Shown in pieces: positions 3,888 to 37,149 of a stretch of 64,000 bases of DNA; positions within the stretch are counted from its first letter, which is position 1, and each line of letters opens with the position of its first letter. A program made the translations under genes and the position numbers. Origin of the DNA: Candidatus Cloacimonadales bacterium (GTDB taxonomy: Bacteria > Cloacimonadota > Cloacimonadia > Cloacimonadales > JAIOQZ01); assembly GCA_963674825.1 (NCBI GenBank), contig OY771587.1, positions 1,504,001-1,568,000 on the forward strand, written 5' to 3'. Under the pieces are notes generated by a model that did not search any database, was not told the origin of the DNA, and saw only the letters and a program-made list of their open reading frames with translations.

Positions 3888-3915
3888 GAAAAGGCAGGTC
3901 GGGCGACCTGCCTTT
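3888..3915 (-). terminator. Intrinsic terminator downstream of the 4149..6284 gene and its repeat element
   Basis: Inverted repeat AAAGGCAGGTCG / CGACCTGCCTTT ending in a short T-run on the minus strand. Confidence 0.7.
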
Positions 3916-3925
3916 AAATATACAC

Positions 3926-4146
3926 TTCGTTCTCACTTCGTGAAAACCGATGATCCAATCCAACGATCCACTTTCGCTATTTCGCTTCGCGAAAGGAGAT
4001 TGTCGAAAATATCTCCGCTAACATGAATTCGCTGCGCAAATGGTTTTCGTTTTGACTGCGTCAAAGCCGACTATCCACTAACATGACTTCTCTTCGCGAA
4101 GTCACATCGTTCGATGTTTTCGTTTCTGCTGCGCAGAAGCCGAAAA
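3926..4146 (-). repeat. Modular palindromic hairpin repeat, copy A (REP/BIME-like mosaic)
   Basis: Shares a 79-bp block (3963-4041, 1 mismatch) with 27641-27719, a collinear ~101-bp block (4045-4145) with 27824-27924, and an 18-bp module (3926-3943) with 27736-27753. Confidence 0.9.
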
Positions 4147-4148
4147 TA

Positions 4149-6284
4149 TTATTTCATCAGCACCATCTTCTGGGTCATGACCTTGCTGTCGGCATTGAGG
4201 CGATAGAAGTAAACGCCGCTGGAGACGTTCTTTCCTGATTCGTCTGTACCGTTCCAAGTGACCGAGTTGTTACCCTTTTGCGCTCTTCCGTCGAAGAGGG
4301 TCTTGATCTTCTGACCGCGGACGTTGTAAACCGCGAGTTCTGCGTTCATATCACTGGGAACGCTGAAGCCGATGGTTGTTTCCGGGTTGAAGGGGTTCGG
4401 GAAGTTCTGGTCGAGGCTGATTGCCTGGCTTACAGACGGGGCTTCGTCGTCGGTTTCCCACGGGTTGAAATCTACATCGATCGCCATGTAGGTGACGGTT
4501 CCGCCGTTATTATCGCCAAGATTGTTCTGGGCATATGAGCCGAAGCTGTTATCGTTAAAGTACATGATGTGCAGCTTACCGTGGTTGTCGCCGAGGTCTT
4601 CGATCTTATCACCAAGATAGAGATAAACCGGTATCTGATTTTCAAGCTGTTCGATATAGTGTCCATCGGGATCAGTCGGGCAAGCGTTCATCACGATTGG
4701 ATCAGACCAAGTGGTGCCGTTGTCGCCGGAGATCGCGATCATGATCTCAGGTACGGAAGCATAGTCGGTATATTCCTCCCAACCGTATGAGTTGTAGAGG
4801 TATTCTTTGGTTCCATCCGACCATATTGCCGCCATCCAGCTTTTGTCCTCATTGTAAGCGATTTTGTAGTAGTTCTCATGGAAAGCCTGATCTGTATCGT
4901 AGTAATAGATTGGCCAATAACGTACAGCGTTGATGGTTCCTGTATCTTCATAGAATTCGTCCACTACGCCGTCTTCGTTCACATCCCAAGGCAGGAACGG
5001 CATTCCGTCGGTCGGATTAGCGCTCTGCGGGTAGAGGTCATAGTTAAGGAATTCTTCCGTATTCGAATCGTAGATGAAGGTTCTCATCTGGAGATAATCC
5101 GGCCAGTAAACGTTATCGCCACCTGAGTTTCCCTGCATTGAGAAGGGAGCCTGGAAGTGAAGGCAATCTTCGTTGTCCCATATCGCCGTCATGTGTCCGG
5201 AATGGGAGAACGAGAAATAGAGATCGGAAGAATCGGTCGGCCAGTTGCTGCCGTCCTCATTCAGTGGGCTATCGACATACACTTCTGAGTTGACGACATG
5301 ATATTCCCATTCGCCTTCGCAGAAGTTGTTGTTAATCAGAACAAAGTAATCGGAATCTTCATCCAGGAAGTAGTCTTCGCCACCGGCGAGATATCCGAAG
5401 ATCGCGAACTTACCGTCCCAAGTCACGGCTGATGAGAAGAATGGGCGAATCCAGTCGGGATCGGCATTCCATTCGTCCATTTGCGGGATGGTGATGTAAG
5501 TCCAATCGAGTGTCGGGAATACGCCGGTCTCGATATCGGATGTCGAATAATCGGCATACGCGATAACCACATTTTCGGAAGGATTTCCGGCATCGGAGTG
5601 GGCAGCGTTGTTATTAGCCAGAACATAGACGCGGCGCTTTCCGTCCGTATCATAACTGGGAGCCTGGCTGATATAAACATAGGGCCACAGGAACTGGTCG
5701 TCGGAGAATGGCGGTTCGAAATCGATGCCCGACCAATCACTATTGGGGATGATCGTAAACGGTGTACTGAAAAGCCCGGGGGACTGCAGAAGGTGCCATA
5801 CATCCATGCCCAGTGCGCAGTCATAGATCGAGCCAACGCCAGATTCGAAATGCCAGGCATAGATCGGATCCTGCGTCTCGGGATCGATATCGACACCGGC
5901 GTATCCTTCGTACTGGTCCGTCTGGCCAACGTAATTCGTTGAATTGGGTGTTCCATCCGGGTTGATGTAAACAATATACTCACGACGCTCTGAGGCTGCC
6001 GTTTCCTTTCCATGGAACAGCAGATAGACGCCGCCGTTGTCCTGTACTCGGACCGGTTCGCCATTGTAGCTGCCCATCATGTAGTCGAAAAACGAGCTCT
6101 GGATATCCACGGGCTCAACCATGAATTCCCATTCCGGTACCATACGTGAGGCAGCGGCAGTCCGTCCTACTTCGGCACTATTATCGAAACGTGCTTCTTT
6201 CTGCGGTCCAGGCTGCATCGCATTTGCCACAAGCATACCGGCAATCGCGACAAGCAAGACCAAAAATACCATACTTTTGCGCAT
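4149..6284 (-). CDS. Secreted acidic protein of unknown function with FlgD-Ig/T9SS-like C-terminal domain
   Basis: Signal peptide, AGGAGG RBS; Asp-box-like ISGDNGTTWS; Ca-loop-like WDVNEDGVVD; tail QNFPNPFNPETTI...YNVRGQKIKTL...SSGVYFYRL...KMVLMK. Confidence 0.8.
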   Translation of the reverse strand: MRKSMVFLVLLVAIAGMLVANAMQPGPQKEARFDNSAEVGRTAAASRMVPEWEFMVEPVDIQSSFFDYMMGSYNGEPVRVQDNGGVYLLFHGKETAASERREYIVYINPDGTPNSTNYVGQTDQYEGYAGVDIDPETQDPIYAWHFESGVGSIYDCALGMDVWHLLQSPGLFSTPFTIIPNSDWSGIDFEPPFSDDQFLWPYVYISQAPSYDTDGKRRVYVLANNNAAHSDAGNPSENVVIAYADYSTSDIETGVFPTLDWTYITIPQMDEWNADPDWIRPFFSSAVTWDGKFAIFGYLAGGEDYFLDEDSDYFVLINNNFCEGEWEYHVVNSEVYVDSPLNEDGSNWPTDSSDLYFSFSHSGHMTAIWDNEDCLHFQAPFSMQGNSGGDNVYWPDYLQMRTFIYDSNTEEFLNYDLYPQSANPTDGMPFLPWDVNEDGVVDEFYEDTGTINAVRYWPIYYYDTDQAFHENYYKIAYNEDKSWMAAIWSDGTKEYLYNSYGWEEYTDYASVPEIMIAISGDNGTTWSDPIVMNACPTDPDGHYIEQLENQIPVYLYLGDKIEDLGDNHGKLHIMYFNDNSFGSYAQNNLGDNNGGTVTYMAIDVDFNPWETDDEAPSVSQAISLDQNFPNPFNPETTIGFSVPSDMNAELAVYNVRGQKIKTLFDGRAQKGNNSVTWNGTDESGKNVSSGVYFYRLNADSKVMTQKMVLMK

Positions 6285-24485: not shown

Positions 24486-27290
24486 CTATTTTAACATCAC
24501 GGCCTTGCGTACACTCGAATAACTGCCAGCCTTCATCCTCACGAAGAAGATTCCGGAGCCAATCGGGCGGTTCTGCGAATCGGTTCCATTCCAGGTCACT
24601 TCATGCCATCCGGCATTGACTCGACCTTCGTCGAACCTCTTCACAAGCTGGCCGCGTAGATTGTAAATTTCCAATACGACCCGTTCTTCTTTCGCGAGGC
24701 CGTACTTGAATGTTGTGGATGGGTTAAACGGATTCGGATAGATATCGGTGAAGGTGTTAACAGCCGGAACTACCGCCGTTTCCGATGATGACAGCCACTC
24801 GTGCTGTATCTCGGTATGGGCAGATTCACCCGTCGTATAGACACAGCTCACGCCCAATGTATGAACGCCCGGCTCAACGTCGATCCAGAGGAACTGTGTC
24901 TGCGTGGTGTTGCCTTGCAGATCGCCGTCCAAATAGACGTTGAAGCTCTCCAGGTTGCGATTCCCGGGAGTATTCCATGTCATTCTGACACCGGCAGCGA
25001 CTTCGACAGCGGCAAGGTTGACCGGTGCAGCCAGCGTCTCGACAAGCTCGACATCGAGCGAGGTATCCTGATCAATCGCGATACCCGTCTGTGAATATTC
25101 ATCGTAACCAGCAAGCGAAACCTGCAGATCATAGGTTCCTTCGACAACACTACCGAACGTCACTGAACCTCCCGCAGGAATATTCGCCGTATAAACGAAT
25201 CCTGGCTCACCATTCTGATTTGTCAGCACAGCCACAGCACCCTCAGGAGATTCTTCACTGTTCAGAGACACGTTCAGTTCAACCGTCAATATCTCATCAT
25301 TGGTAATGATCAACGTTGCAGGAATGTCGATAATCGGGTTGATCGCGTCATTGCTGATGAATCTGATGGTAGCGTGATAGGTGCCTTCCGGGAGATCGCC
25401 GGACGAGAATTCCGCGCCGATATCCATTGTTTCGTTCGGTTCGAGCGTTCCACTCATCGTGTCAAGACTGAGCCAGCTTGGTCCTGATGAAATGGCAATC
25501 GCCATGCCAGGCTGGATGTACTCCTGATTGTACGATACTTCCAGACCAATCGTACCAGCCTGGTTCTCGATACCGACAGTCGCGCTGCTCGAACTACCTT
25601 CGAGTTCCTCGTAGTAGAACACGATACCACCGCCACGACGCAGTACCATCTGCATGTTGACGTGGTCTTCGTCGTAGTTGAAGGTGGCGTTGTCATACTG
25701 TATGATGGTTTCGTTTTCGTTGTACTGAATATAAACGTTGGCATCGATGATACTCAGGTCATCCCAGAACGGTGCGATTACATTTGCGAGATAATGCTGG
25801 TAGGGCAGATGGAAATTCATCGCTCCTGAGAAATGAATCATGGCATAGTTGAAACTCAGAAAGCCATTGCTGGAAAGGTAAAACCAGTTGTACGTCTCAC
25901 CGTAGAATGGGAAATCGAATCCCATCGCAAGCCCTTTGTACCCGTCATCGTACCATGAGCAATTGTCACATTCATGCCAGTCTGTAACGAGTGTGCCGCT
26001 TTCCGATATATCGTTCCAGACGTATTCCGGCCCCTCGGGATCGTTGCTGTCGATCCAGGAATACCCGAACTCGTCAGGACCACCCTGGTCGCGATCGCCA
26101 CCCAGATTATCCAGGTCGATCAGCTGAATAGAGAAATTCAGATCACCGGTACCGTTGTTGAGTAGAGTGAGTTCCTGACTCGAATCGACACCGTATGAGG
26201 GCAAAATCGCATTCAATTGAGACGGATTGATAATCAATCCCGGAGGCTGAATGCACTCTGCATGTAAATCGATGGTATACAGCCCATCCGGATCATTGCT
26301 GTTGATGACAAGCTGTTCGTTATAGTCTTCCTGATGTGTGGCAGTGCAGGTGGCTTCAATGGTAACCGATTCACGCATATCCAGACTGAATGGGCCGTCG
26401 TCGGATATTGTAAAGACACCGTCCGTAGTATAGATATTGCTGATTTCGAGCATGTCCGCACCCTCATTGGTGACGGTGAGGGAGATCGTCTCGGGAAATC
26501 CGACACTGACATATTCGAAATCGATGTTATCCTGATTGACATCGAGAATCGGTATATTGCCGTACATCAGAAACGACATATACCTTCTCATCAGCTCGGT
26601 CCAGGTGTTCTCGTCACCTTCCTCGAGGTACGAAGTAAACATCGTCGTACTACAGATCGTACGATACCCGCTGGGACTGTCGTAATAGACACCACTTCCA
26701 TAGCCCAACGAAGTTGTCTGGCAGAGGATTCCGGCAGCAGCGTCAATCAGATCTACCTGCTGGTAAGCCGGTGCGTTTGTATTGATTACGTAGGAAAGGC
26801 TATTCATGAGTCCCGGACTGATTCCATTGACCGAAGCAATGAACGAATTGTGATCCGCGACAAATTCGGTTCCAAATCGATTGAAAAATTCTGTTCCGAC
26901 GTGATCCGCGCCGAAATCGACGCTCTCAATATAGATGGCCTTACCATCATCCAGAAACTCGACCAATCTGGTTTGATCCTCAGCACCGACCGTGCTGGGT
27001 GGTGTCGCGCTGCAGCCCGTGCGCCATACACCCAATGTGATAAATATCACATCGTAGCCAGACAGATCGGCAGGTAACACGCTGACTGTTTCATGCTCAT
27101 ATCCAAGATCTGTCAGCGACTGTTCAATTCCATGTTCGTATCCATAGTGTGCCGGATCACCGGGGATTGAGATTTGATTTTCATCATCATTATCCCATAT
27201 CAGGATTTCCTGAGCACTGCTAAGCGCTGGAAAGACTCCTAACAAGAATCCAAACACAACGAGGATACCAATACGCGATGTTGTGCGCAT
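24486..27290 (-). CDS. Secreted Ig-rich multidomain protein with FlgD-Ig/T9SS-like tail (paralogue 1)
   Basis: Signal peptide; DLSGYDVIFITLG N-domain; choice-of-anchor-D/ASH-like Ig; GGPDEFGYSW...IAPFWDDL nidogen-like insert; carboxypeptidase-regulatory-like domain; FN3; IYPNPFNP tail. Confidence 0.8.
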   Translation of the reverse strand: MRTTSRIGILVVFGFLLGVFPALSSAQEILIWDNDDENQISIPGDPAHYGYEHGIEQSLTDLGYEHETVSVLPADLSGYDVIFITLGVWRTGCSATPPSTVGAEDQTRLVEFLDDGKAIYIESVDFGADHVGTEFFNRFGTEFVADHNSFIASVNGISPGLMNSLSYVINTNAPAYQQVDLIDAAAGILCQTTSLGYGSGVYYDSPSGYRTICSTTMFTSYLEEGDENTWTELMRRYMSFLMYGNIPILDVNQDNIDFEYVSVGFPETISLTVTNEGADMLEISNIYTTDGVFTISDDGPFSLDMRESVTIEATCTATHQEDYNEQLVINSNDPDGLYTIDLHAECIQPPGLIINPSQLNAILPSYGVDSSQELTLLNNGTGDLNFSIQLIDLDNLGGDRDQGGPDEFGYSWIDSNDPEGPEYVWNDISESGTLVTDWHECDNCSWYDDGYKGLAMGFDFPFYGETYNWFYLSSNGFLSFNYAMIHFSGAMNFHLPYQHYLANVIAPFWDDLSIIDANVYIQYNENETIIQYDNATFNYDEDHVNMQMVLRRGGGIVFYYEELEGSSSSATVGIENQAGTIGLEVSYNQEYIQPGMAIAISSGPSWLSLDTMSGTLEPNETMDIGAEFSSGDLPEGTYHATIRFISNDAINPIIDIPATLIITNDEILTVELNVSLNSEESPEGAVAVLTNQNGEPGFVYTANIPAGGSVTFGSVVEGTYDLQVSLAGYDEYSQTGIAIDQDTSLDVELVETLAAPVNLAAVEVAAGVRMTWNTPGNRNLESFNVYLDGDLQGNTTQTQFLWIDVEPGVHTLGVSCVYTTGESAHTEIQHEWLSSSETAVVPAVNTFTDIYPNPFNPSTTFKYGLAKEERVVLEIYNLRGQLVKRFDEGRVNAGWHEVTWNGTDSQNRPIGSGIFFVRMKAGSYSSVRKAVMLK

Positions 27291-27544: not shown

Positions 27545-27570
27545 GGGCAGGCATATAGACCTGCCCCCAC
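27545..27570 (-). repeat. GTAG/GTGG-type REP-like palindrome, probably also acting as terminator
   Basis: Minus strand GTGG-GGGCAGGT-CTATAT-GCCTGCCC followed by a pyrimidine/T-rich tract. Confidence 0.55.
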
Positions 27571-27579
27571 AAGAAAATG

Positions 27580-27924
27580 TTTCGTTTTTGCTGAGCAAAA
27601 GCCGACAATCCACTAACATGACTTCTCTTTGTGGAATCTGACGATCCACTTTCGCTATTTCGCTTCGCGAAAGGAGATTGTCGAAAATACCTCCGCTAAC
27701 ATGAATTCGCTGCGCAAATTCACAACGCTCATGTTTTCGTTCTCACTTCGTGAGCCGAAAAAGGCTTTCGTTCGATATTTTCGTTTCTGTTACGCAGAAG
27801 CCGAAAAGCACAACGTTCGACTATTTCGTTTTTGCTGCGCAAAAGCCGACAATCCACTAACATGACTTCTCTTTGCGAAGTCACAACGTTCGACCATTTC
27901 GTTTTTGCTGCGCAAAAGCCGAAA
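27580..27924 (-). repeat. Modular palindromic hairpin repeat, copy B
   Basis: Five TTTCGT-stem-loop-CCGA modules plus other hairpins; internal 52-bp direct repeat (27580-27631 vs 27824-27875, 1 mismatch); blocks shared with 3926-4146. Confidence 0.9.
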
Positions 27925-30798
27925 TTATTTTAGCATCACAGCCTTACGAACACTCGAGTATTTGCCGGCTTTCATCCTCACAAGGAATATACCGGAGCCA
28001 ACCGATCGGTTCCGCGAATCGGTGCCGTTCCATGTCACTTCATGCCACCCGGCATTGACACGACCTTCGTCAAGCCGCTTTACAAGCTGGCCGCGGAGAT
28101 TGTAAATATCCAGCACAACCCGTTCTTCTTTCGCAAGGCCGTACCTGAATGTAGTCGATGGATTGAACGGGTTCGGGTAGATACCGGCAAAGGAATCGAA
28201 CGTTGGAATCATTTCCGGATCTGTTCCCTGCCATTCGAACTCCGTTTCAGCCGGATCGGATTCTCCGGTTGTATAAACGCAGGTCACACCGATAGTATGC
28301 ACGCCTGCTGACGGGGTTTCCCAGAAATAATATGTCTCGGAAACATTCTGCAGCAGCTCACCATCCAGATAGACATTGAAGCTCTGCAAACTGCGGTTCC
28401 AGGGCAATTCCCATCTCACCAGCGCTCCGCCTTCAGCGTTATCAACCGTCAGATTGATGGGCGCGAACAGCGTTTCGATCAGCTCGATATCCATCTCGTA
28501 ATCCTGCTCAATCACGATATTGTTCTGACCAAAGTCGTCGTATAGGTCAAAATCGACTTCAAGATCGTAGGTTCCGTGCGCAATATACGGGAAAATAATC
28601 TCGCCATTTGCTGGAGCGATGGCCGAGTATACGTGGTTGGGATTACCATCCTGGTTGGTGAACGTCAATTCCGCACCCTGTGGTGATTCTCCGCTGTTGA
28701 GCGAGATATTGAAGATCGCCGGGCTGGCATCATCGTTGGATACGGTCATGCAAATCGGAATCTCGACCATCGGAGTTGCCGGGTCGTTGCTCGATATCTG
28801 CGCTACCGCGTCATAAGCTCCAAGCTCCATGCCGATCGAATTGAACACCAGTGTGATATCTGTCGATTCTCCAGGCGCAAGGCTCCCTGAGCTGGTAACG
28901 GCTTCCACCCAACCCGGACCGCAGGAGAGTTCCACAGCCAGACCGCTTGTGACATAATCAGCGTTATAGACAACCTGTAATCCATCGGTGCCCAAAGAGT
29001 TCTCGATGCCGACCGTCGCGGTGTCGAGCGACCCAGTCATCGATTCGTACAGGAAGGTGATCCTGCCACCCTGACGTATCCGGGCTTGCAACGTAATTCC
29101 GCCGGTTCCAGAATAATAGGCCCAGTTATTGAACTGGATGACAAATTCGTTGCCGTCCTGCATCGTGTATGCCGTACCGCCATTACTTCCGTCCATATCG
29201 TCCCAGAACGGGCAGATGATGTTGTTGGGAGTTGATGCGGTAGGAATCGGAGCGTTAGAATACGCCGTCATGTTGACATTTTCGGCTGCGAATCCAATGA
29301 ATCCGTTTGAATTCAGGTAAACCTGATTGTACGTGAAGCCGTAGTAAGTGAAATCGAATCCGAGATCGAATGGACCTGCATAGCCTTCATCCATCGGATC
29401 GAAGGAGGAGGTTGCAATCCAGTTCGTAATCTGGGTGCCCTCGGATGTGATATCCTCCCAGATATACTCGGGACCGTCCGGTTCGTTGCTGTCGACCCAG
29501 GTGTATCCGAATTGATCTGGACCTCCCTCGTCACGGGTTTGAGGCATGCCGGTTCCATGCTCCTCAAAACCCTTGGGCGGAAGAGAAGCTTCCGGCGTGA
29601 TCGGGGCTTCGAGGATCAGCACTTCCCGGTTGAGTTCCACCAGGTCAAGCGCGAATTCGAGGACGCTATTGCCATCGTTGGTGATGGTAATCGTCTGAGT
29701 TTCGTTACCTGTTTCAGGTGGAAGCATCACATTCATCTCGTACGGACCGGCGACAATCACAGGTGGTTCGAGGCAGCTTGCCATGACATCGAGCACAACG
29801 TTGCCGTCGGGATCGTTGCTGTAGATAGTAAGCTGCTCGGAGGCTTCTATCGATGAAGCAGGATCGCAGGTGATCTGTACTGTTGCCGATTCACCCGTAT
29901 CGAGCGTCCAGGGACCTGTCTGGTCAAGCGAGAAAACATCCCCGGAAATGGTGATGTTGCTCACCTCCAGCGGCTGGAGCCCCATGTTCAGGATATCGAG
30001 ACAGAATGTCTGTGGATATCCGATGAAAACGCTCTGGAAATCGACTTCATCGTACGACGTACACAGCGCAGGTACATTGCCCTCTGCCAGAAAAGCAAAG
30101 TAGCGTGCCATAAGCTGCACTTTTGTATTGGCTCCTTCGCCATCGCGATAAGAGCCGAAGATAACAGATGAAAAGATTGTTCGGTAGTCGTTTTCTCCAA
30201 CGTTGTAAACACCGCAACACGTACCGGATTGCGTCTGTTGATATTCCATTCCGCCATCAGCGTTGAGAACATCGACCAGATAATCCGATTCACCGGTGTT
30301 ATCATATTCAAAAGCAAGGTTATTCATGAAACCCAGGGGGGCACCGTTGATACCGGTGACAGTACCTGCGTTATCACTTACGTATTCAGTACCGAAGTAG
30401 CTGAATAGTGTGGTGTTGAAATGATCGGAGCCGAAATCGACTCCTTCGACATAGATGGCATTGCCATCTTCCAAAAAATTGACCAGTCTGGCCTGTTCAG
30501 CGGTGCCGACCGCACCGGGTGGTGTGCTTCCGCATCCTAAACACCACACTCCTAATGTGATGAAAATCACATCATAACCAGACAGATCGGTAGGCAGTGA
30601 GCTGACGTTGGTAAAACCTATTCCAAGGTCCGTCAGCGCGTTCTGCAAGCCAACCTGGCATCCCACCGAGCTTCCCGTCTCCGGATCGGCAATGGTCGAG
30701 CCATTGTCGTTATCCCAGAGCAGCACCTCCTGTGCGTTGCAAACCGCAAGGAGCATCAGAAACCCGATCAGGACACCAACACGCTTCAATGTGCGCAT
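27925..30798 (-). CDS. Secreted Ig-rich multidomain protein with FlgD-Ig/T9SS-like tail (paralogue 2)
   Basis: Same domain order as 24486..27290. Start placed at ATG 30798 (MRTLKRV, AGGAGGT RBS) rather than 30834. Confidence 0.8.
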   Translation of the reverse strand: MRTLKRVGVLIGFLMLLAVCNAQEVLLWDNDNGSTIADPETGSSVGCQVGLQNALTDLGIGFTNVSSLPTDLSGYDVIFITLGVWCLGCGSTPPGAVGTAEQARLVNFLEDGNAIYVEGVDFGSDHFNTTLFSYFGTEYVSDNAGTVTGINGAPLGFMNNLAFEYDNTGESDYLVDVLNADGGMEYQQTQSGTCCGVYNVGENDYRTIFSSVIFGSYRDGEGANTKVQLMARYFAFLAEGNVPALCTSYDEVDFQSVFIGYPQTFCLDILNMGLQPLEVSNITISGDVFSLDQTGPWTLDTGESATVQITCDPASSIEASEQLTIYSNDPDGNVVLDVMASCLEPPVIVAGPYEMNVMLPPETGNETQTITITNDGNSVLEFALDLVELNREVLILEAPITPEASLPPKGFEEHGTGMPQTRDEGGPDQFGYTWVDSNEPDGPEYIWEDITSEGTQITNWIATSSFDPMDEGYAGPFDLGFDFTYYGFTYNQVYLNSNGFIGFAAENVNMTAYSNAPIPTASTPNNIICPFWDDMDGSNGGTAYTMQDGNEFVIQFNNWAYYSGTGGITLQARIRQGGRITFLYESMTGSLDTATVGIENSLGTDGLQVVYNADYVTSGLAVELSCGPGWVEAVTSSGSLAPGESTDITLVFNSIGMELGAYDAVAQISSNDPATPMVEIPICMTVSNDDASPAIFNISLNSGESPQGAELTFTNQDGNPNHVYSAIAPANGEIIFPYIAHGTYDLEVDFDLYDDFGQNNIVIEQDYEMDIELIETLFAPINLTVDNAEGGALVRWELPWNRSLQSFNVYLDGELLQNVSETYYFWETPSAGVHTIGVTCVYTTGESDPAETEFEWQGTDPEMIPTFDSFAGIYPNPFNPSTTFRYGLAKEERVVLDIYNLRGQLVKRLDEGRVNAGWHEVTWNGTDSRNRSVGSGIFLVRMKAGKYSSVRKAVMLK

Positions 30799-30867
30799 TG
30801 CGTACCTCCTGTCCTGTGGGGAGTGTCTTATCAAGGAACATGCATGAAAAGTAATGAGTAAAATATA

Positions 30868-36021: not shown

Positions 36022-37131
36022 TCAGAGGACCTCGAGCAATTTGATGATATAGAGATAGAGTTTCATGATCTTACGGGGGACCTTAAGAACGAGATGGGAT
36101 CGTTTACCTTTGCTCCACACCCAATTAAATATGAGGAAAAACGCAAGCAAGTCCTCTATTGGATTCGTTCGAATCCGGACTCGATCATGGATATTCATTC
36201 CGAAATGTTTACCCGCTTTGCTTCGCGAAGTTACGTTGTAGTGCAGCCGGATGGACCTCGACTGAGACTCGAGGATAAACTTGATGTTTTTTTGTTCCAC
36301 GACAAGCTTATTTGCATGACTCATCTTCTCAAGTATACTGGCTGCGATATCGTTTTTCGCGATAATACCGTTGTGCTTATGCTCTTTCGATTTCATTTGC
36401 ATAAGCCAGACATCCCCGATACAGAAATCGGCATCGTACCCGAAGTGGTCGTAACATGAAAGGCATTTCTTTTCAGCGAAAAAAAAGAGGTTATGGTACA
36501 GCGTATAACGTGCAGCCGGCGCTTGGATGATCTGCCCGTTTTCGAATTCGGCTTCGAGCTTGCCTCGCCAGCTTCCTTTGCGGAAAACAAAGCGCTTGAT
36601 CCGAGATCCTCCGGCCTGTTTTTCCAGATTGCGAATCGTCTGTTCGATCAACTCCGGTTCATTGTTATGCCCACAGAAAAGCGCGATGGTACAGACGATT
36701 TTCTGCCGTAATTCGTCGTCATTTTCCACCTGTTGCTTCAAAAACGTAAGCTGGCATGGCAGCCCAACAACAGCTACTCTCCCAGCAAAACCTCTGATCA
36801 TCGGCACAGCAACTCTGAAGAAGTCACTTTTCTGGTATTTACTGCCTTGAGCCAGAATGATTTCTTCCCTTGTCTTAGCGATATAATGCGAAACAGTGAG
36901 CCTTCCGTCATTGATTGCTGTAGTACAGACCAACGCGCCGTCGATTGCTCCCGTTTCCAGAAGCCAACCCAGAATAGTGGATGTCACGCCACCGGAAGCG
37001 GCATTGATGCGCATCTCGGGATCTTTTGAATAGGCGATACATGCGGATGAAAAAGGCCCAATGTAACGGTCGATTTTATCTTGAGGCCAAGATTTACTCA
37101 ATATCCGGTCAATCAGCTCGTATTTATTCAC
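36022..37131 (-). CDS. Coenzyme F420 hydrogenase/dehydrogenase beta-subunit (FrhB/FdhB)-like protein
   Basis: ASGGVTS, AQGSKY, VVGLPCQ, IALFC, KCLSCYDH...ADFCIGD. GTG start at 37131 with GAGGT RBS preferred over 37143. Confidence 0.85.
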   Translation of the reverse strand: MNKYELIDRILSKSWPQDKIDRYIGPFSSACIAYSKDPEMRINAASGGVTSTILGWLLETGAIDGALVCTTAINDGRLTVSHYIAKTREEIILAQGSKYQKSDFFRVAVPMIRGFAGRVAVVGLPCQLTFLKQQVENDDELRQKIVCTIALFCGHNNEPELIEQTIRNLEKQAGGSRIKRFVFRKGSWRGKLEAEFENGQIIQAPAARYTLYHNLFFFAEKKCLSCYDHFGYDADFCIGDVWLMQMKSKEHKHNGIIAKNDIAASILEKMSHANKLVVEQKNIKFILESQSRSIRLHYNVTSRSKAGKHFGMNIHDRVRIRTNPIEDLLAFFLIFNWVWSKGKRSHLVLKVPRKIMKLYLYIIKLLEVL

Positions 37132-37149
37132 AGCACACCTCAAGATTGC

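Follow-up and report, generated by a model that had tools for sequence, protein, structure and literature searches.

A dispersed two-hairpin repeat at the stop codons of FlgD/T9SS-tail genes in one Cloacimonadales lineage, a likely non-autonomous REP-like element

The window analysed here, a stretch of 64,000 nucleotides from a Candidatus Cloacimonadales genome (G000; one contig, 3.89 Mb, 99.6% complete), contains two arrays of small hairpins, copy A and copy B, each at the end of a gene for a secreted protein with a FlgD/T9SS tail (Table 1). Tail genes with an array at the stop codon are referred to as filled, and those without one as empty. Both arrays start at an AAA-TAA gene end, copy A 3 nt past the stop codon and copy B directly on it, and a GGCAG hairpin adjoins the far end of each, as the initial annotation of this DNA had described. 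It had furthermore counted eight copies of a main module, here called hairpin 1, and all eight are found, with starts at window positions 3926, 4046, 4119, 27581, 27736, 27780, 27825 and 27898; the stem variants listed for them are present in the sequence. Six of the eight modules have the claimed minus-strand GCA or GAA loop closed by C-G, and the remaining two have one TCA loop and one GTA loop whose closing pair is broken.

Table 1. Features of the two arrays and their surroundings (window positions unless G000:C1 is given)
Feature	Position	Strand	Remark
Empty (element-free) tail gene downstream of copy A, peptidase C25	1448..3799	-	
GGCAG-type hairpin, far end of copy A	3890..3915	.	Flanked by T runs, resembling a terminator; a repeat of its own, overrepresented after filled tails
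Copy A array, including TAA stop (4149-4151) and 3-nt spacer	3926..4151	-	Top covariance-model match in genome, 92 bits
Copy A final hairpin-1 module	3926..3950	-	
Copy A truncated hairpin 2, GGAGAT/ATCTCC hairpin, second-type hairpin-2 module	3967..4041	-	
Copy A second hairpin-1 module	4046..4070	-	TTTGAC/GTCAAA stem
Copy A linker and hairpin 2 (first type)	4071..4118	-	Conserved purine-rich internal loops, cGAAg loop
Copy A hairpin 1	4119..4148	-	cGCAg loop on a 6-bp stem; GC-by-A internal loop above the basal stem
Copy A host gene, 711-aa secreted protein, FlgD/T9SS tail	4149..6284	-	FlgD_ig and Por_Secre_tail matches
Empty (element-free) tail gene downstream of copy B	24486..27290	-	Domains similar to copy B host
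GGCAG-type hairpin, far end of copy B	27545..27566	.	
Copy B array with TAA stop (27925-27927); five modules of hairpin 1, and further ones of hairpin 2	27581..27927	-	
Copy B host gene, 969-aa secreted protein, FlgD/T9SS tail	27925..30834	-	FlgD_ig and Por_Secre_tail matches
FrhB-type (F420 hydrogenase beta-like) gene	36022..37143	-	Within glycosyltransferase cluster
Long imperfect hairpin, example	G000:C1 167572-167681	+	
Long imperfect hairpin, example	G000:C1 2305185-2305268	-	

Read on the gene-sense strand, the basic unit is composed of two hairpins and measures about 72 nt. In hairpin 1, a 2-by-1 internal loop (GC opposite A) separates the basal stem from a 6-bp stem that is capped by a triloop. 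A short linker then leads to hairpin 2, whose 2-bp helix is joined to a variable upper stem through an internal loop that is rich in purines and either 4-by-4 or 3-by-4. Units follow each other head to tail in series of up to eight, with loss of parts, fusion and uptake of extra hairpins, and the modules inside arrays are all direct and none inverted. By eye, the listed arrays have no terminal inverted repeats; their right ends are variable, and they are not closed by an inverted version of the left end.

Covariation establishes this structure. Specifically, the stem covariation that had been noticed in the window holds in an alignment of 33 related copies, in which 91% of cells are paired, and two-sided changes number 74 versus 18 in shuffles (0/500), with the kinship of the 33 copies uncorrected. 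Eleven of 21 pairs vary on both sides, and slid controls drop to 33-46% pairing. Eight different perfect stems are found in hairpin 1, and the basal pair of hairpin 2 is A-T in 34, G-C in 19, G-T in 6 and A-C in 4 of 63 distinct copies. The fold z-score ranges from -4.2 to -4.6, and folding energies do not tell DNA from RNA. The initial annotation could place the element in no known family, which agrees with Rfam: there are 0 matches at gathering score in the window, and the best E-value, 2.3, lies over copy A.

The window holds only a fraction of the copies. A loose module search of G000 returned 47 clusters; 14 single loose matches were dropped and those with several modules, or with one in a clear context, were retained, leaving about 33. 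A pattern blind to the loop finds 50 hairpin-1 modules in G000 versus 0, 0, 0, 0 and 1 in five shuffles, and among 232 genomes of the phylum it counts 47, 37, 26 and 91 in four congeners and one each in four others. A covariance model built from the 33 copies gave 18 further matches in G006, from a sister genus, no match in G004, G005 and G007, which belong to the family of the carriers, and two weak partial matches among 150 genomes. A pattern of a stop codon plus TTCGG, run over the 232 genomes, stays at chance level outside the genus and G006; the 26 such loci examined lack the structure. The repeat is real and lineage-restricted. No publication on this element was found in the literature, of which supplementary repeat and motif tables could still list it. 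In contigs from three sequencing runs (at most two samples, one possibly the source), the element is covered with piled-up depth, and no joint skips it, a comparison that is blind to rare excision.

Hairpin 1 may be an older and wider module, because look-alikes occur in metagenome contigs and in an Oscillospiraceae genome. Thirteen of 24 pattern matches in metagenome contigs retain the upper stem, with a basal stem longer by 3-5 pairs and mostly the same single bulge; three of the metagenome matches are one plasmid-like contig and one lies inside an ORF. Among 251 Oscillospiraceae genomes two are positive, neither offering an enzyme lead, and one has the hairpin within a larger mosaic, while none of 10 matches in viral contigs has full stems. 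A small plasmid-like contig (L133, L136, L140) carries one hairpin-1 module between two putative replication and mobilisation genes.

The choice of site is exceptionally narrow. In G000, the element starts 0-6 nt past the stop codon of 27 of 209 FlgD/T9SS-tail genes versus 0 of 2,637 other ORFs (at least 100 codons), and since the tail profile was built from filled genes, this may affect the denominator, not the contrast. Among non-tail ORFs, 0 of 335 ending in Lys and 0 of 86 ending in a hydrophobic residue plus Lys are filled. The targeting of gene ends that had been proposed thereby stands in a refined form, as a preference for the last codons and stop of FlgD/T9SS-tail genes specifically. 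A 24-nt matrix of tail ends selects 134 tail sites and 0 other sites, and a DNA target therefore suffices. The other six G000 clusters lie about 140 nt past a tail stop behind other repeats (three), 50 nt past one (one), before a TetR-family gene (one) and before a tail gene (one). The same target recurs in related genomes, as 23 of 94 fetched tail ends are filled in G002, where 150 pattern matches exist, and the 12 G006 loci examined all begin on a stop codon, which belongs to a tail gene in 9. Likeness of tail ends to the 3' end of the module was considered as a landing rule and set aside as weak by eye.

The junction itself is built into the structure. Under a bulge rule that was set after the data were seen, the basal stem pairs the final base of the stop codon at 63 of 72 junctions (35 A-T and 28 G-C, with no A/C or G/T). 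The end of the stop codon thus sits in the first stem, and the element therefore overlaps or supplies the stop while the protein stays intact. Other repeat families near tail stops in G000 show modest enrichment at most; a GGCAG hairpin comes after 8 of the 27 filled tails and 16 of the 182 empty ones, and short TCGG remnants are not significantly enriched after empty tails (7/182 versus 47/2,637, p 0.08). The filled genes are unbiased in replication strand (16 leading, 11 lagging), so that movement of the IS200/IS605 type is not matched.

Does the repeat act as DNA or as RNA? The loops speak for DNA: in G000, GNA loops occupy the gene-sense strand in 40 of 50 modules and the other strand in 0 of 50, and 48 of 50 are closed by C-G. 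A GAAA/GAAA internal loop can form a zipper in DNA, in which CTTG loops are stable as well. The loops listed include no UUCG and almost no GNRA tetraloops. According to PMC13037366, only GNA triloops give a very stable DNA mini-hairpin, their RNA counterparts being much less stable. The strand specificity proposed earlier holds through these loops and not through wobbles, because G-T pairs exceed A-C mismatches by only 9 to 5 among 24 distinct stems. A DNA form is favoured over an RNA form, though not decisively, and the element would fold as single-stranded DNA.

The orientation of the element points the other way. When flanking genes and strands are tabulated, it lies in the sense of the host gene at 27 of 27 filled genes, between stop and terminator, as expected of an RNA element, which weakens the reading as mobile single-stranded DNA. 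It is possible, though rather unlikely, that the repeat is a functional 3'-UTR element of secreted-protein mRNAs, with a hairpin on the stop codon that the terminating ribosome meets and that slows termination, triggers decay, protects the 3' end or binds a protein via its internal loops. Consistent with such a role, conservation between the two genera is highest in the linker and at the base of hairpin 2, hairpin 1 is replaceable (as at three G006 loci) and its replacement still contains the stop, and in two cases a copy displaced by other repeats from the stop appears more degraded. E. coli REPs no more than 15 nt from a stop codon are, furthermore, reported to stall ribosomes (PMC12306157). 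Against it, the loops obey the rules of DNA and not of RNA, only 13% of tail genes are filled, orthologues differ, copies also occur within another repeat and before the TetR-family gene, and the look-alike hairpins of distant bacteria lie on either strand relative to genes. If the hairpin does act on the terminating ribosome, it would give one gene family its own control over the output of surface proteins, and few regulators are known from this phylum.

Comparison of orthologous sites reveals turnover. Empty counterparts were sought in 26 pairs of G003 and G002 loci, the G003 side of which was picked for being filled and includes two loci that map twice: 8 pairs are filled in both genomes, 14 in G003 only and 1 in G002 only, 2 have a DUF1670 element in G002 and 1 is empty in both. 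Each genome tends to have its own type of junction, with which the stop codon switches, and a class of junctions with a 3-nt offset exists. No clean filled/empty junction, target duplication or insertion scar was found among these sites, a comparison limited by orthologous spacers that differ wholesale, being either too diverged or replaced.

Arrays are also shared between genes that have little else in common. Two G003 genes whose upstream DNA is 35% identical agree at 92% over 358 nt, a segment that opens 20 nt ahead of the stop and runs across the array and its flank; another pair shares 284 nt at 96%, and two unrelated G000 genes have a 190-nt block in common at 99%. Arrays shared in this way start about 20 nt before the stop. 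Nine of nine G000 pairs with a stop-anchored shared segment and at most 40 nt of coding overlap are filled pairs, and no such pair occurs among empty tails or 1,984 non-tail genes of this genome; these counts represent non-independent events, because the copies are related. Given filled and empty orthologues together with near-identical arrays at unrelated genes, we infer that arrays were likely copied between gene ends. The spread envisaged earlier is thereby refined from clean insertion to the copying of whole arrays. Conversion between sites that are already filled can also yield shared arrays, which explains homogenisation and not first arrival.

As the initial annotation had stated for the window, no cognate enzyme adjoins any copy examined, be it a RAYT/IS200 enzyme, a GIY-YIG nuclease, a tyrosine recombinase, a reverse transcriptase, IS110 or DUF1670. 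The 11 Y1 matches in five carrier genomes have no module within 1.5 kb and have other repeats there, Y1 transposase matches are absent altogether from G001 and G006, and none of 12 GIY-YIG matches in five genomes lies beside a module, the nuclease genes examined each being flanked by their own, different repeat. Around 48 IS110 loci, there is no module beyond a short chance match inside one transposase gene. G000 has no reverse transcriptase (RVT_1), IS110, DUF1670 or integron integrase, and its three tyrosine recombinases all fall far below the TIGR02249 cut-off.

Another element that uses these gene ends is found in G002. This multi-copy DUF1670 element (L367-L386) consists of only two DUF1670 genes with sub-terminal inverted repeats, sits at a Lys-stop end, supplies a new stop and lies at tail-gene ends in 7 of 8 left flanks examined; short remnants of it occur at other tail ends (L445, L450, L028). 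Its presence there shows that the site is a shared landing place. The repeat might accordingly be viewed as the scar or the non-autonomous passenger of an insertion element (DUF1670 or IS110/IS1111) that is specific for tail stops and has since been lost from most of these genomes, a view that draws on its own TAN start, on two loci where a host stop is followed by the TAA of the element, and on one G003 paralogue pair in which one member has the repeat and its partner a DUF1670-like end. We consider this quite improbable: the repeat is unlike DUF1670 or IS110 ends in sequence, it lacks terminal inverted repeats and a fixed right end, and DUF1670 matches are present in only 1 of 5 carriers and IS110 in 2 of 5, with the IS110s of G002 lying inside other repeats.

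Several other elements deserve mention in their own right. The genus has at least five further hairpin-repeat families, several of which flank their own Y1 or GIY-YIG gene (L001-L004 in G000; L152-L159). In G002 (L200-L217), two IS110 families of 7 and 10 copies are seen, one inside a GTAG-type repeat, which has no adjacent RAYT among the loci examined, and the other inside the repeat that flanks small GIY-YIG genes. IS110 copies from four other genomes of the order do not lie at tail stops. In G003 (L160, L163), a small GIY-YIG frame lies inside what is presumably 23S rRNA sequence, possibly as an intervening sequence. A composite transposon suspected in G003 was rejected, its apparent inverted pairs being divergent tail genes. 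In G000, a tRNA-adjacent integrase island (G000:C1 1796734-1812246) is bounded at its end by a tail gene of 1,596 aa that carries a diverged copy of the element, and a related gene with the element lies near G000:C1 3625000.

A second repeat, confined to the same genus, is a long imperfect hairpin of 80-210 nt with fixed G-T pairs, a tandem GA mismatch and a variable tip. Relative to an origin placed by GC skew and dnaA, 31 of 32 G000 copies (one weak match dropped) lie on one replication strand, a bias that the two-hairpin repeat does not have. G001 holds about 100 copies (sampled loci L169-L198), for which no enzyme was found, and a two-hairpin unit, away from stops, occupies the tip of 8 of the 30 copies sampled, 6 of them recognised by pattern and 2 by eye.

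Tail genes also exchange parts. Three G000 genes (G000:C1 1983108-1986323, 2148780-2150084 and 3641516-3643504) differ in their N-termini and are 92-96% identical over about 250 nt of their tails, the whole intergenic region and the first part of the following gene, which reads as recent tail-domain swapping. Could the repeat be a recombination site, attC-like or NIME-like, that shuffles secreted-protein cargo domains onto sorting tails? Five G000 pairs share a whole tail domain (at least about 250 nt) plus 3' flank, two of them filled, and Neisseria NTS/dRS3 repeats cluster at surface-protein genes according to PMC11893778. Such a function nevertheless seems very unlikely, given that 3 of the 5 tail-sharing pairs have no element at the stop, that most filled genes keep orthologous tails, and that the 33 clusters contain no attC frame and the genome no integron integrase.

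Taken together, the best explanation, to which we assign a probability of roughly 0.55, is that this dispersed two-hairpin repeat, which carries no gene, is likely a non-autonomous element of the REP/BIME kind; it would adopt a single-stranded DNA fold and would likely spread by copying between gene ends. Of the earlier proposal of a mobile or recombination substrate, the strand-specific structured repeat tied to gene ends is retained, and the attC-like or RAYT/IS200-linked substrate is not supported. In this model, the conserved last 15-24 nt of tail genes would serve as a left landing arm, and the first stem would take in the end of the stop codon and leave the protein unchanged. The right end would be loose and may carry downstream flank along, and GGCAG hairpins could act as a right arm. 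A copying process that is fixed at the gene end and loose at the far side fits the stop-anchored sharing of arrays, including the one case with flank. Subsequently, arrays would grow by local tandem amplification and modules would recombine. As for the moving enzyme, a structure-specific ssDNA nuclease acting in trans, combined with host repair, would be our guess.

A bolder version, which we regard as unlikely, would be an undescribed homing system in which a new class of enzyme reads folded single-stranded DNA with GA-rich internal loops and writes it onto tail-gene stops, rewriting 3' ends and tuning termination or mRNA fate, with the long hairpin family served by the same machinery.

The origin and spread of REP-like repeats are still an open question. 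In the REP-like family described here, one target is exactly defined, orthologues exist in filled and empty form, and copy events are recent, so that the spreading step becomes testable. The stop codon of tail genes, furthermore, emerges as a shared safe landing site for unrelated mobile DNA, namely the repeat and the DUF1670 element, within one genus.

How does the repeat compare with known systems? Its intergenic imperfect hairpins with a conserved internal mismatch, its mosaic arrays and a copy number that varies between genomes resemble REP, BIME and REPIN sequences as outlined in PMC3333891 and PMC6006769, and its locally homogeneous tandem arrays recall the BIME arrays described in the former. 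In contrast to REPs, for which the latter source gives a GTAG/GTGG tetranucleotide as a feature, such a motif stands 0-2 nt 5' of the hairpin foot in 0 of 33 clusters; the modules are, moreover, direct and not inverted, no RAYT is adjacent and the target is strictly the stop codon of one gene family. With the Neisseria NTS/dRS3 repeats and their Ssn GIY-YIG single-strand nucleases (PMC11893778), it shares oriented ssDNA hairpins at surface-protein genes, but the SRM pattern transcribed from that text occurs in 0 of 33 clusters and the small GIY-YIG gene of G000 is flanked by a different repeat. The target hairpin of diversity-generating retroelements, as described in PMC3240598, likewise forms in DNA immediately 3' of the target gene, has a loop of the G-N-A type and depends more on the structure than on the sequence of its stem; it has a GRNA tetraloop, however, where the repeat has a triloop, and the repeat forms module arrays in a genome without an RVT_1 match.

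Like an integron attC site, the repeat is a folded single strand with unpaired bases, beside the stop codon of a gene. An attC site is defined by its RYYYAAC ... GTTRRRY frame, which is present in 0 of 33 clusters, and there is no cassette array. Unlike a MITE, the repeat has, by eye, neither terminal inverted repeats nor fixed ends. By the features tested, it is thus not a REP/BIME, an Ssn repeat, an attC site, a MITE, a DGR target or a member of an Rfam family, and it works most like REP/BIME sequences with an unusually strict target.
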